A stretch of DNA of 64,000 bases from an uncultured Bacteroidales bacterium (GTDB taxonomy: Bacteria > Bacteroidota > Bacteroidia > Bacteroidales > Salinivirgaceae), in the NCBI GenBank assembly GCA_964413185.1, contig CAYPSX010000001.1, forward strand, positions 2,883-66,882. The letters run 5' to 3'. A program made the position numbers and the translations under genes. Positions 39,083 through 42,169 of the stretch are shown piece after piece. Position 1 is the first letter of the stretch, and each line of letters begins with the position of its first letter. The notes beneath the pieces are model-generated. The model searched no databases and was not told the DNA's origin. It was given only the letters and a program-made list of their open reading frames with translations.

Positions 39083-40888
39083 ATGAGTCAACACATTAGA
39101 AACGTGGCAATTATTGCCCACGTAGACCATGGGAAAACCACGTTGGTCGATAAAATATTGCACCAATGTAAAACCTTTGGGGCACACGAAACCCCGGGAG
39201 AACTTATCATGGATAGTAACGATCTTGAGCGGGAACGCGGTATAACCATATTCTCTAAAAACGTTTCTGTGCAATATAACGATATAAAAATCAATATTAT
39301 AGATACGCCTGGCCACAGTGATTTTGGCGGCGAAGTAGAGCGTGTTTTGAATATGGCTGATGGTGTATTGCTATTGGTCGATGCTTTTGAAGGTTGCATG
39401 CCCCAAACGCGTTTTGTATTGCAAAAAGCACTGGAACTGGGATTAAAACCTCTGGTTGTAATTAATAAGGTTGACAAACCCAATTGTCGGCCACTTGAGG
39501 TTCAGGAAGAAGTATTTGAGCTCATGTTCAACCTCGATGGCAGCGATGAGCAATTGGATTTTCCTACTTATTATGGTTCAGCCAAAGAAGGTTGGATGTC
39601 TGACGATGTACAAAAACGGACAAACGACATAACATCATTGCTCGATGGAATTGCAACCCATATTCCGGCCCCTGAAATTGAAAAAGGCCACTTGCAAATG
39701 CGCATCACCTCACTCGATTATTCATCCTACGTGGGGCGTATAGCCATCGGAAAAGTGTTCCGTGGCACACTCAAAGCTGAAGAACAAATTGCGCTGATCT
39801 CAAAAGATAAAACTATTGCCAGGCAAACCATAAAAGAGTTGTTTGTGTTTGACGGATTCAAGCGTAAAAAAGTTGCAAGTGCCGAAGCCGGCGAGATTGT
39901 GGCCATTGTAGGTCTTGAAAAATTTGAAATCGGTGATACAATTGCAGATTTTGAACACCCCGAACAACTGGATCCAATAGCCGTAGATGAACCTACAATG
40001 AGCATGTTGTTTACCATCAATAACAGTCCGTTTTATGGAAAAGAAGGCAAATTTGTAACCTCGCGCCATATTAAAGACCGACTGGAAAAAGAGTTGGAAA
40101 AAAATCTCGCCATGCAAGTACATGAAACCGATTCGGCAGACAAATTTAATGTCTACGGACGTGGTATTCTGCATTTGTCTATCCTTATTGAAAATATGCG
40201 TCGCGAAGGTTATGAAATGCAAGTGGGCCAGCCTCAGGTATTGTACAAAATGATTGGCGCCCAAAAATGTGAACCTTTCGAAGAGCTTACCGTTGACGTG
40301 CCCGATGAATTTTCAGGTACCGTAATTGAAATGGTGAGCCAGCGAAAAGGCGAAATGAAAAACATGTTCAGAAAAGGCGACAGGATCAATATTGAATTTG
40401 AAATACCATCGCGCGGCCTTATCGGTCTAAACAACCAGGTGCTTACATCTACTGCAGGCGAAGCTATTATGAACCACCGTTTTATTGAATACCGCACGGA
40501 AGTTGGTCGAATAAAAGAGCGCCAGAACGGCTCACTAATTGCCATGGAAGGTGGTACTGCTATTGCTTATGCCATTCATAAATTACAAGATCGCGGCCGG
40601 TTTTTTGTTGCCCCGGGAGAAGATGTTTATGCGGGCCAGGTAATTGGACAAAATACCCGTGAAGGCGACCTTGTATTGAATGTTACCAAAACCAAAAAAC
40701 TTACGAACATGCGCGCAAGTGGTTCCGATGAAAAAGTTATGGCAGCACCGCCCATAAAGTTTTCTCTCGAAGATGCCCTGGAGTATATCGAAAAAGATGA
40801 GTATGTGGAGATAACACCCAAAAGTATACGGTTACGTAAAGTTTTACTAAATGAAAATGATCGTAAACGAGCAAAAATGAAAAGCTGA
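39083..40888 (+). CDS. typA: Translational GTPase TypA/BipA
   Basis: AHVDHGKT, ERERGITI, DTPGHSDF, NKVD and EITPKSIRLRK motifs. Confidence 0.97.
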   Translation: MSQHIRNVAIIAHVDHGKTTLVDKILHQCKTFGAHETPGELIMDSNDLERERGITIFSKNVSVQYNDIKINIIDTPGHSDFGGEVERVLNMADGVLLLVDAFEGCMPQTRFVLQKALELGLKPLVVINKVDKPNCRPLEVQEEVFELMFNLDGSDEQLDFPTYYGSAKEGWMSDDVQKRTNDITSLLDGIATHIPAPEIEKGHLQMRITSLDYSSYVGRIAIGKVFRGTLKAEEQIALISKDKTIARQTIKELFVFDGFKRKKVASAEAGEIVAIVGLEKFEIGDTIADFEHPEQLDPIAVDEPTMSMLFTINNSPFYGKEGKFVTSRHIKDRLEKELEKNLAMQVHETDSADKFNVYGRGILHLSILIENMRREGYEMQVGQPQVLYKMIGAQKCEPFEELTVDVPDEFSGTVIEMVSQRKGEMKNMFRKGDRINIEFEIPSRGLIGLNNQVLTSTAGEAIMNHRFIEYRTEVGRIKERQNGSLIAMEGGTAIAYAIHKLQDRGRFFVAPGEDVYAGQVIGQNTREGDLVLNVTKTKKLTNMRASGSDEKVMAAPPIKFSLEDALEYIEKDEYVEITPKSIRLRKVLLNENDRKRAKMKS

Positions 40889-41021
40889 CAATAGGTGGTA
40901 TACCCAAAATCGATATAGAAAACCCACATACAAAAGCTTTGATTAATAATGAATTGTAGCCTTCGTTTTGTAGAGTGGAAGCAGGTATTGGTCAATTTTT
41001 TTGTTGCTCTTTGTTTTTTTA

Positions 41022-41029
41022 TATCTTTG
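41022..41029 (+). promoter_or_regulatory. Sigma-A promoter (-7 TATCTTTG; -33 TTTG at about 41000-41003)
   Basis: Matches both Bacteroidota elements at plausible spacing, immediately upstream of the long hairpin. Confidence 0.65.
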
Positions 41030-41035
41030 ACTCAA

Positions 41036-41216
41036 CGTAAACGAATAAAAATTTAGTAGTCATTCTTCTGTTCCTAAATCGCCAGATTATTTAAAGCCCG
41101 GAAGAAGATATGCTAGTCACCATAAAGGGTGTTTGGCTATTTGGGTTTTATCCAGGGCAAGGTATTTGGCGATACCCGGAACGTGGAAAATCTAAATTTT
41201 GCTGACACCTTTTTTT
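41036..41216 (+). ncRNA. Candidate 6S-like structured RNA
   Basis: Nested stems 41048-56/41192-200, 41070-74/41178-82, 41078-86/41165-73 and 41096-102/41151-58, then a terminal hairpin; internal bubbles; upstream promoter; T7 run at 41210-41216. Confidence 0.5.
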
Positions 41217-41588
41217 ATGGAAGAATATACAGACGTATTAAAAAGCAAAACCTGTTTAATTATTAATATTTACGATTTCGATCGTCTCCTGCTGGAAGAG
41301 GTGCTGGAATCTTCGGGTGTTGATATCGTTTGTACTTCACCCGCCGGCTTCTTCGAAACACCTGTCTCAAAAAAAATTGATGTTGCAATAATTGATTTGG
41401 AAGAGCCTGCTGCGGATGAGCTTGATGCGCTTTTGCAAGAAATATTGAAACGATATAAGTGTCCCATAATTGGCATTACGGGTTACTCCTATTTCCCCTT
41501 AAAAGAAAGTAAAATAAATGCTATTGTCCACAAAATCAACATTGTCCCGAAATTGGTCGAAACCATTTTGCAGTGTATAAAGAGGTAA
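41217..41588 (+). CDS. Stand-alone atypical receiver (CheY-like) domain
   Basis: DVAIIDLEEP, PIIGITG and AIVHK match the receiver D/T/K positions. The start is reassigned to ATG 41217. Confidence 0.6.
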   Translation: MEEYTDVLKSKTCLIINIYDFDRLLLEEVLESSGVDIVCTSPAGFFETPVSKKIDVAIIDLEEPAADELDALLQEILKRYKCPIIGITGYSYFPLKESKINAIVHKINIVPKLVETILQCIKR

Positions 41589-41714
41589 GTTTTGAATATA
41601 ATAAAAGCCCCCGGAAATACAGTATTATTCTCATAAATCGAAAAATATGCTAATCAACGGGGACTTACCATAAGAATTTATTTCGAAAAATTGCGGGCAT
41701 TAGCATACCCGCCA

Positions 41715-41763
41715 GGAATTCATTTTTTTTCTGTTTGGCAGGATAATCATGAAAATGAATTCC
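41715..41763. terminator. Long inverted repeat in a convergent intergenic region
   Basis: Perfect 12-bp stem GGAATTCATTTT / AAAATGAATTCC, next to a GCGGG/CCCGC hairpin. Confidence 0.5.
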
Positions 41764-41780
41764 GGTTTTACATAAAAACA

Positions 41781-41987
41781 TTAATTTTCTACTTCAAAAG
41801 AAATTTTTGCATTTACTGCATAAGAAACAATTTTGTTGTTTTCAACATTTGCATTCATTTCTTTAATGTAAACCGATTTAATGTTTTTTACGGTTTTAGA
41901 TGCTTGTTCTACTGCATTTTGCGTTGCTTCTGTAAATCCTTTATCAGATGCAGCAATAACTTCAATAACTTTAACCATTTTGTTCAT
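41781..41987 (-). CDS. Dodecin family protein
   Basis: 68 aa; VKVIEVIAASDKGFTEATQNAV...YAVNAKISF. Confidence 0.85.
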   Translation of the reverse strand: MNKMVKVIEVIAASDKGFTEATQNAVEQASKTVKNIKSVYIKEMNANVENNKIVSYAVNAKISFEVEN

Positions 41988-42169
41988 AAGAATATTTTTT
42001 TGATTCTACAATTAATTAGTTTTGAATGTATTAATTAGACAAACCTAACTTCATTTTTGTTCAAAAAGATTTCCTGGTTCACACCCCAAAAAGCATCTAA
42101 TAGAAAAGGTTTAGAAAAGCCCGGTAATCTTTAATGGTTTCAAAATTACAGGGCACTTATTAATTACGA

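Follow-up and report, generated by a model that had tools for sequence, protein, structure and literature searches.

A hairpin RNA preceding an orphan gene of an uncultured Bacteroidales bacterium belongs to a widespread, uncatalogued RNA family with features of a mobile attenuator-type leader

Between typA/bipA and a 123-aa open reading frame (ORF) on a 64,000-nt stretch of DNA from an uncultured Bacteroidales bacterium lies a long, rod-shaped hairpin. In the following, the whole stretch is called the window, all coordinates are positions in it, and the genome from which it comes (90% complete) is referred to as G000. We read this hairpin, with moderate confidence and on the basis of sequence comparison, as the 5' leader of the 123-aa ORF, namely as a diverged, single-copy member of a family of cis-acting, mobile RNAs of the attenuator type. 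Judged from covariance-model searches, this family is widespread in the Bacteroidota and uncatalogued, being absent from Rfam 15. A sequence-only reading of the same DNA had suggested that the hairpin is the organism's 6S RNA or a new small RNA (sRNA), or alternatively a cis-regulatory leader of the following gene. The 6S part of that interpretation had to be given up, whereas both fallbacks did better: the hairpin is a member of an RNA family that is missing from Rfam 15, and the leader alternative fits the layout of this family.

Homologs of the hairpin were found only with covariance models. A blastn search with the element in 60 relatives gave no homolog, and therefore sequence search alone would have misled us to regard it as a species-specific oddity. 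A covariance model built from the single window hairpin (R1) produced weak matches in other families of the order, which had the common blocks AAAUCGCCA ... UUUGGCGAUACC with covarying stems between them. The next model (R2) was built from 11 sequences, in which RNAalifold identified 11 compensated pairs. With it the RNA was detected throughout the order, in 119 of 301 genomes and 91 of 208 genera, often in several copies and often near contig ends. When the phylum was searched with a third model, made from 99 members and with the window excluded (R3), 50 of 401 genomes proved to have the family. Copies per genome ranged from 1 to 11.

Additionally, an exact two-block pattern was used to collect loci in named genomes and in IMG/VR, so that these loci were selected by pattern before the model was tested on them. 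The pattern occurred at no fewer than 120 loci in named genomes, of which 80 were tested and 72 confirmed by the model. It also occurred on 99 IMG/VR viral contigs, and of these, too, the model confirmed 72 out of 80 tested. Pattern-bearing groups include Bacteroidaceae, Prevotellaceae, Alistipes, Muribaculaceae, Dysgonomonas and Paludibacter, and further Prolixibacteraceae, Lentimicrobiaceae, Flavobacteriales, Chitinophagales and Ignavibacteria. Among cultured carriers, Bacteroides finegoldii (JCM 13345) has 11 copies, Paraprevotella clara (YIT 11840) about 10, Dysgonomonas sp. 4, and Hoylesella loescheii, Chryseobacterium hispalense and Flavobacterium segetis (DSM 19741) 2 each. The cultured phages of INPHARED gave no match to the family, and plasmids a single weak one. 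No family of Rfam 15 matches these loci. We found no description of the family in the literature; it may be listed without a name in sRNA maps of Bacteroides or in large catalogues of motifs.

In the case of the window copy, R3 gave 62.1 bits over the full model length (E = 1.2e-11 within the window, 8e-10 genome-wide), and the next-best matches in the window did not exceed 16.5 bits. Both blastn and the covariance model showed the element to be single-copy in its own genome. Typical members score 80-130 bits, and the divergence of the window copy can be followed in its sequence. The family blocks AAAUCGCCA ... UUGGCGAUACC reappear as AAATCGCCAG (41076-85) and TTTGGCGATACC (41165-76), together with the P3 helix TGTTCC/GGAACG. 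The GCG/CGC closing pairs (P1) are lost, with AAA and CAC in their place, and the helix AAAATTTAG/CTAAATTTT is formed instead; the canonical CCCACGC/GCGUGGG is represented by ACACCU/GGGUGU. The copy belongs to the short-leader class, with its promoter 18 nt before the model start, and it has the family layout of TATCTTTG box upstream, U7 run and ATG at 41217. Within the genus, one copy each was found in G000, G001 and G003 and none in the three other genomes; in the sister genus the family is present in 3 of 7 genomes.

The promoter that had been proposed ahead of the hairpin was borne out at the level of sequence: the Bacteroidota -7 box TAnnTTTG is matched by TATCTTTG at 41022-29, with TTTG before it at 41000-03 and a predicted transcription start near 41035. 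A generic sigma-70 promoter scan found nothing at the hairpin, as is expected for this phylum. The nested complementary segments and the T7 run likewise lie where they had been described (Table 1). The fold was computed on the + strand from 41030 to 41216, in which the hairpin spans 41048-41200. The minimum free energy (MFE) was -50.0 kcal/mol, compared to a mean of -39.1 kcal/mol in dinucleotide shuffles (z = -3.0; 1 of 200 shuffles as good), whereas the reverse complement reached -38 kcal/mol (z = -0.9). Thus, the fold is beyond chance and specific to one strand, and in the model the + strand is favored through G-U pairs. Both the MFE and the centroid fold of the window contain internal loops of only 1-9 nt, the largest being of 3-9 nt, and small internal loops only are seen in the family consensus; the large central bubble, which the earlier proposal had named as a mark of 6S RNA, is not there. 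The rod itself is not a classical terminator, as 9 nt separate its base from the T7 run. Directly against this T run lies another helix, made of GGGTGT (41127-32) and ACACCT (41205-10).

Folding energy and compensatory change in homologs had both been put forward as checks on the hairpin, and in the homologs such changes are plentiful. In 72 sequences, 90.4% of the cells were paired and 35 of 40 pairs showed changes on both sides. In each of five measures the real alignment surpassed all 500 shuffles, and the signal was lost when the 3' partners were slid out of register. G-U pairs outnumbered A-C pairs by 332 to 58, and in terms of model scores the reverse strand obtained about 35 bits versus 110-168 bits for the forward strand. 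P3 is 96% paired in the family with 4-6 pair types per position. P4 is near-invariant in the pattern-selected set and covaries order-wide, e.g. CCGCC/GGCGG and CUGGU/ACCAG, and of all blocks in the family GGCGAUACC shows the highest conservation. Altogether this pattern of substitutions indicates that the family element is an RNA, read on the + strand.

To describe the alternative pairings, four segments were defined: segment 1 runs from the 5' end to before P3, segment 2 lies before the apical 5' strand and includes it, segment 3 comprises the apical 3' strand onward, and segment 4 extends from after the 3' strand of P3 up to the U-tract. The apical 3' strand GCGUGGG, which forms part of the rod, has a second complement in CCCACGC, the stretch directly adjoining the U-tract. 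This second helix, which we call helix T, has a core of 7 pairs that was paired at 90.3% in 99 sequences, with 30 double-change cells; shuffles had 9, and none of 500 came up to the observed number. Explicit compensations were present in L155, L148, L147, L123 and L152, and the complementarity extends to about 15 pairs.

Duplex energies between cognate segments, i.e. segments of the same RNA, were then compared with those of non-cognate combinations, using one representative of each of the 53 clusters of less than 80% identity among the 99 copies. Cognate pairing was favored for 2:3 (-21.0 versus -13.4 kcal/mol, p = 3e-26), for the extended 3:4 (-21.0 versus -13.0 kcal/mol, p = 2e-23) and for 1:2 (-12.5 versus -9.1 kcal/mol, p = 5e-13). 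The control pairings 1:3 and 2:4 had no cognate advantage, and 1:4, the rod base, was weak and showed none either. At 142 of the 157 loci a U-tract stands behind the RNA. As shown by these sequence comparisons, the family maintains two mutually exclusive sets of pairings, 2:3 in the apical rod versus 1:2 together with 3:4, and 3:4 ends exactly at the U-tract. The logic is that of an attenuator, with 2:3 plus P3/P4 (the rod) on one side and 1:2 plus 3:4 on the other, from which we infer conditional termination.

The window copy keeps P3, P4, 1:2, 2:3 and 3:4 in altered sequence. Its duplex energies are -14.9 kcal/mol for 1:2, -7.6 kcal/mol for 1:4, -13.9 kcal/mol for 2:3 and -19.2 kcal/mol over about 21 pairs for 3:4. 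The whole fold with helix T forced reaches -46.2 kcal/mol versus -50.0 kcal/mol for the rod, a gap of 3.8 kcal/mol. The elements of the locus are collected in Table 1.

Table 1. Elements of the leader RNA, its downstream gene and the surrounding segment (positions in the window).
Feature	Position	Strand	Sequence, pairing or basis
Bacteroidota-type promoter	41000..41029	+	TTTG 41000-03, 18-nt spacer, -7 box TATCTTTG 41022-29
Leader RNA, diverged family member	41040..41215	+	models R2, R3
Paired segments AAAATTTAG / CTAAATTTT	41048-56 / 41192-200	+	sequence read
P3 TGTTCC / GGAACG	41069-74 / 41178-83	+	sequence read
P4 ATCGCCAGAT / ATTTGGCGAT	41078-87 / 41164-73	+	sequence read
GCCCGGA / TCCAGGGC	41096-102 / 41151-58	+	sequence read
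Apical CACC / GGTG	41118-21 / 41128-31	+	sequence read
Segment 1, AAAAATTTAGTAGTCATTCTTCTG	41047..41070	+	pairs with segment 2, or weakly with segment 4 at the rod base
5' strands of P3 and P4	41069..41087	+	TGTTCC; ATCGCCAGAT (family motif AAAUCGCCA); pair with 41164-41183
Segment 2, including apical 5' strand TCACC	41098..41122	+	pairs with segment 3 (rod) or segment 1 (alternative)
Segment 3, GGGTGTTTGGCTATTTGGGTTTTA	41127..41150	+	apical 3' strand, or 5' strand of the terminator-like helix T
3' strands: P4 ATTTGGCGAT, conserved ACC, P3 GGAACG	41164..41183	+	fold, family comparison
Segment 4, GAAAATCTAAATTTTGCTGACACCT, then U7 (41210-16)	41186..41216	+	ACACCT 41205-10 pairs with GGGTGT 41127-32
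T7 run	41210-16	+	sequence read; then ATG at 41217
Cargo ORF, 123 aa	41217..41588	+	ATG at 41217, right after U7 (41210-16)
Variable 1.28-kb segment typA-arsR	40889..42169	.	carries leader RNA, orphan ORF and dodecin gene (41781-41987, -)

Judged from its genomic surroundings, the family element is most likely a leader and not a free-standing gene. In a survey of 157 non-redundant family loci, for which ORFs of at least 50 aa were considered, a co-oriented ORF started within 200 nt downstream in 133 of 141 loci (94%), with a mode at 40-70 nt. On the divergent strand, taken as control, an ORF was present in 41 of 144 loci. A TAnnTTTG box was located within 90 nt upstream of the RNA in 102 of the 157 loci, and the spacers between RNA and ORF contained three such boxes in 7.4 kb.

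This arrangement bears on the alternative that survives best, though we consider it unlikely: an independent sRNA gene of about 180 nt, ending at the U-tract and acting in trans by base-pairing or protein binding, for which the near-invariant AAAUCGCCA/UGGCGAUACC strands might serve, the ORF being a passenger of leaky termination. Against it speak the close co-oriented ORFs without a promoter box of their own at 94% of the loci, the ATG that stands 1-2 nt after the U run in the window and in its relatives of the genus, and the conserved strands, which are paired in the rod rather than exposed. Nevertheless, such a gene would agree with the element having its own promoter and U-tract, and with its multicopy occurrence, in which the conserved blocks are common to the copies within one genome. 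Multicopy sRNA families, FopS and GibS, also exist in Bacteroides. Moreover, action in trans is compatible with a cis-acting leader, and in rnTrpL an attenuator-derived RNA that acts in trans has been described (PMC6614838).

Upstream of the RNA, short reading frames are more frequent than expected. A mini-ORF, defined as AUG plus 0-5 codons, was present 12-40 nt upstream in 72 of 154 loci (47%), compared to 19% in shuffles, with a peak of the ATG at -30 to -26. These mini-ORFs consist of 1-3 codons, mostly ATG-TAA or ATG-NNN-stop. Examples between -40 and -12, where their distance from the RNA is fixed, are ATGTAA, ATGACATAA and ATGGTATAA, in which the reading frame is conserved rather than the sequence. 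As only 47% of the members have one, the mini-ORF is not obligatory, and the window has none, the stretch from promoter box to RNA being free of ATG.

In the mechanism that we propose for the attenuator-type leader, the family would travel as an accessory-gene cassette consisting of promoter, leader RNA, U-tract and a variable gene. If segment 2 captures segment 3, the long rod would form, segment 4 would stay essentially free and RNA polymerase would read into the gene. If 1:2 holds instead, the 3:4 terminator hairpin would form at the U-tract and a leader RNA of about 180 nt would be released. As candidate triggers we consider ribosomes on the mini-ORF of 1-3 codons, recognition of the near-invariant AAAUCGCCA/UGGCGAUACC strands by a protein or an RNA, and the kinetics of transcription. 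More tentatively, and with clearly less confidence than for the window copy as a leader, we suggest that the family may form an undescribed, phylum-wide class of switch-type leaders, associated with horizontally acquired genes for surface, defence and regulatory functions in the Bacteroidota and in their prophages, in which a common signal would gate unrelated accessory genes by terminator/antiterminator refolding. The common signal might be ribosome availability, through the start-stop mini-ORF, or a host or phage factor acting on AAAUCGCCA/UGGCGAUACC; terminated leaders could also cross-talk in trans between copies.

Several observations weigh against a switching leader. The canonical rod is far more stable than the fold with helix T forced (-71.7 versus -54.0 kcal/mol in L067), and therefore any switching would need kinetics or a factor to drive it. 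The 3:4 hairpin closes a stretch of about 45 nt and differs from a textbook terminator. The rod base (1:4, GCG/CGC) of canonical members also abuts the U-tract, so that either fold might be the ‘off’ state. About half of the members do without the mini-ORF, the window copy among them, and where it is present its stop lies about 25 nt before segment 1, so that a terminating ribosome cannot mask this segment. Likewise, no translation overlapping segment 1, as in a leader peptide, was found, the mini-ORFs ending about 25 nt upstream and the window being without any. It should also be added that alignments fitted to a covariance model lean towards the structure of the model, and that the ORF of the window, being an orphan, could be non-functional.

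Some of these points would suit a static 5' stem-loop, e.g. an RNase III substrate or a 5' protective hairpin that stabilises or insulates the mRNA of acquired genes or directs its processing, much as transcribed Correia and ERIC elements do, without any switching. The rod is long, stable and highly paired, in canonical members it is much stabler than the alternative fold, and by position the element would stand at the 5' end of the mRNAs of diverse cargo genes. However, the pairings 1:2 and 3:4, neither of which can coexist with the rod, are specifically maintained by covariation, and 3:4 is placed against a conserved U-tract. A static hairpin would not need this. We regard a stem-loop of this kind as rather improbable, ranking it after the trans-acting sRNA.

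Lower still in probability is a reading in which the copy in this genome is a decaying remnant or a DNA palindrome similar to a miniature inverted-repeat transposable element (MITE), left behind by a cassette and with no present function. What the copy has retained argues against decay: P3, P4, 2:3, 1:2 and 3:4 are all kept through changed sequence, the promoter box is intact, and the layout recurs in G001 and G003, where the ATG likewise stands immediately behind the U run. Neither do a single copy, a strand-specific fold with G-U bias and the absence of visible terminal repeats or target duplications resemble a mobile palindrome. On the other hand, the window copy has only 62 bits compared to 80-130 in typical members, three features are gone from it, namely the GCG/CGC pairs, the mini-ORF and the G-loop hairpin that is found downstream in many members, its cargo is an orphan ORF, and the genus is rich in true MITE-like hairpin repeats.

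Correia, ERIC and REP-type MITEs are transcribed palindromic repeats. By analogy, the family is similar to them as an imperfect intergenic palindrome of about 100-170 bp that would be co-transcribed with its neighbours. Unlike these repeats, it is strand-specific, as judged from its excess of G-U over A-C pairs, it has a polar layout and deep covariation, and its copy number is low. Thus, in view of the single copy in G000, the G-U bias and the reverse strand scoring about 35 bits versus more than 110, a MITE or REP repeat was rejected.

The proposal that the hairpin is the organism's 6S RNA, or a 6S-like RNA that binds RNA polymerase, we hold to be very improbable and have rejected: although its length of about 180 nt and rod-like predicted fold with internal loops resemble 6S RNA (RF00013; 6S-Flavo, RF01685; Bacteroidales-1, RF01693), and although these three models find no recognisable 6S RNA above cut-off elsewhere in the 90%-complete genome, the window had no hit to Rfam 15 at the gathering score, the region 40850-41350 no match to 6S-type models even at E <= 10, the best genome-wide matches of the three models lie in other places and stay far below the cut-off, the fold has no central bubble, and the family, far from being one conserved housekeeping locus, is missing in half of the genomes of the genus and in most of those of the sister genus, reaches up to 11 copies elsewhere, lies on prophage contigs and is tightly coupled to variable ORFs.

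Classical attenuators comprise the trp, his and pyrBI leaders, next to the protein-mediated PyrR and TRAP types. The family has in common with them the four segments, the choice between 1:2 plus 3:4 and 2:3, a U-tract after 3:4, the position between promoter and ORF and, in about half of the members, a short upstream ORF. In contrast, this ORF has only 1-3 codons, lies about 25 nt before segment 1 and contains no regulatory codons, the long and conserved P3 and P4 are additional and join the loops of 1:2 and 3:4, and the genes that follow are unrelated accessory genes and not those of one pathway; termination here is predicted from sequence. The closest published concept is that of the ‘mobile attenuators’ of Naville and Gautheret (2010), related terminator-bearing sequences directly 5' of unrelated genes that are linked to mobile DNA or prophages (PMC2965389). 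Those were described in Enterobacteria and Bacilli and are recently spread, near-identical 3' terminators that insertion sequences or prophages carry (PMC2965389). The present family differs in being old, as its phylum-wide distribution and the 53 clusters among 99 copies indicate, and in having compensatory evolution, its own promoter and alternative folds.

Among non-coding RNAs of the Bacteroidota, the multicopy Bacteroides sRNAs FopS and GibS (PMC11697453) are similar in being promoter-equipped and also present on phage. FopS consists of a single-stranded 5' seed (R1) followed by a terminator hairpin, and its structure has, according to the paper, been deposited in Rfam (PMC11697453). By this published description the family is much longer and differently built; in view of this differing architecture, and with no Rfam family matching, an identity with FopS/GibS was rejected. 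A second multicopy family bound by RbpB (BTnc020 and others) has six members next to transposases (PMC11697453).

The genes behind the leader are diverse. The 135 cargo ORFs fell into 95 clusters, and their types include HsdR_N-like, Mrr and N6-methylase proteins, BspA-type leucine-rich repeat (LRR) proteins, proteins sorted by the type IX secretion system (T9SS), SHOCT membrane proteins, small helix-turn-helix (HTH) proteins and lipoproteins. At least 60 of 103 cargo proteins had signal-peptide-like N-termini. On one viral contig, the unit is situated between an endolysin gene (phrog_435) and an endonuclease gene (phrog_4225). Prophage morons are units of promoter, gene and terminator and are defined by gene layout. 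By analogy, position and content on the viral contig are as expected of a moron, and the family resembles morons in placing self-promoted accessory genes between phage modules, e.g. after the lysis cassette, with cargo of the lysogenic-conversion or defence kind. Unlike morons, it has one conserved structured RNA before many different cargo genes.

In the gut of humans and animals the Bacteroidota predominate, but only a few RNA regulators are known from them, and given their unusual transcription and translation signals, the regulators of model bacteria are a poor guide. Here, one structured leader precedes about 100 accessory gene families. If it does gate these genes, cargo of the lysogenic-conversion and defence kind would be under one shared layer of control, the arrival of new genes with their regulation ready-made would be explained, and the leader could serve as a portable regulatory part for the engineering of Bacteroides. 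As to annotation, a false 6S candidate is removed, and the model can label hundreds of blank intergenic regions.

Further hairpins and motifs accompany the RNA in other members. In many of them (e.g. L082, L078, L075, L072, L074 and L094), the U-tract is followed after 15-45 nt by a small hairpin, whose stem covaries and whose loop, UUGGGGCUG, is rich in G; the window copy does not have this hairpin. Its loop is the complement of the conserved CAGUUCCCA that immediately precedes the U-tract, in L074 as CAAACCC/GGGUUUG. Pairing between the 3' internal loop of the rod and the G-rich loop had a modest cognate advantage (-8.9 versus -7.6 kcal/mol, p = 6e-5) and lies outside the model. A DUF805b-like motif (RF02914, 30.8 bits, just below the cut-off) was found at L050:92-123 (-), and similar GAAAGCC...GAGUAGG sequences lie downstream of the RNA in L087, L101, L104 and L105. 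The presence of DUF805b-like sequences near members suggests that the leaders in these cassettes are modular.

Regarding the 123-aa ORF of the window, no Pfam match was obtained, and a search of 5.8 billion proteins with it returned itself as the sole protein. Compared with other genomes it has 25-35% identity to receiver domains, and its best PDB match was the RpfC receiver (E = 0.0024). A single-sequence AlphaFold2 model, of low confidence (pLDDT 49), showed a beta-alpha alternation. By sequence it is an orphan with faint similarity to CheY-like receivers. The copies in G003 (L097) and G001 (L098) share this layout, the ATG following the U run by 1-2 nt, and precede a different, conserved Cys-rich ORF of 64 aa (MNFEKESILYGLLYDCPFGQELPGC...), which had no Pfam match.

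The locus itself is variable. Upstream of the hairpin lies typA/bipA (39083-40888), and 3' of the 123-aa ORF follow a dodecin gene on the opposite strand and then arsR and a transporter gene, dodecin and ArsR being identified by Pfam. In the same-genus genomes G003 and G005, arsR comes directly after typA and homology to the window restarts only at 42180-92; therefore, the 1.28 kb with hairpin, ORF and dodecin gene is a variable insert. Comparison of the regions downstream of typA in 15 relatives revealed no orthologous element there.

The 3' flank of typA differs in nearly every genome of the genus (G002, G003, G004, G005, G007; L024-L028), with arsR directly, other small genes or hairpin repeats after typA, and looks like a local insertion hot spot. 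In G012, of the sister genus, a family member at C1:47950-48114 (+) is situated just upstream of typA (C-terminal part at C1:45673-46251, -), which may be coincidence or a further sign that the neighbourhood of typA attracts these cassettes. A different MITE-like hairpin repeat of about 170 nt occurs downstream of typA in a sister species (G004, L024:60-260). This repeat belongs to the true MITE-like hairpin repeats in which the genus is rich and which are unrelated to the leader RNA. Dozens of copies with 75-95% identity are found in the window's own genome (C180, C53, C130, C37 and dozens more), and as many of them stand at contig ends, the repeat probably breaks the assembly.

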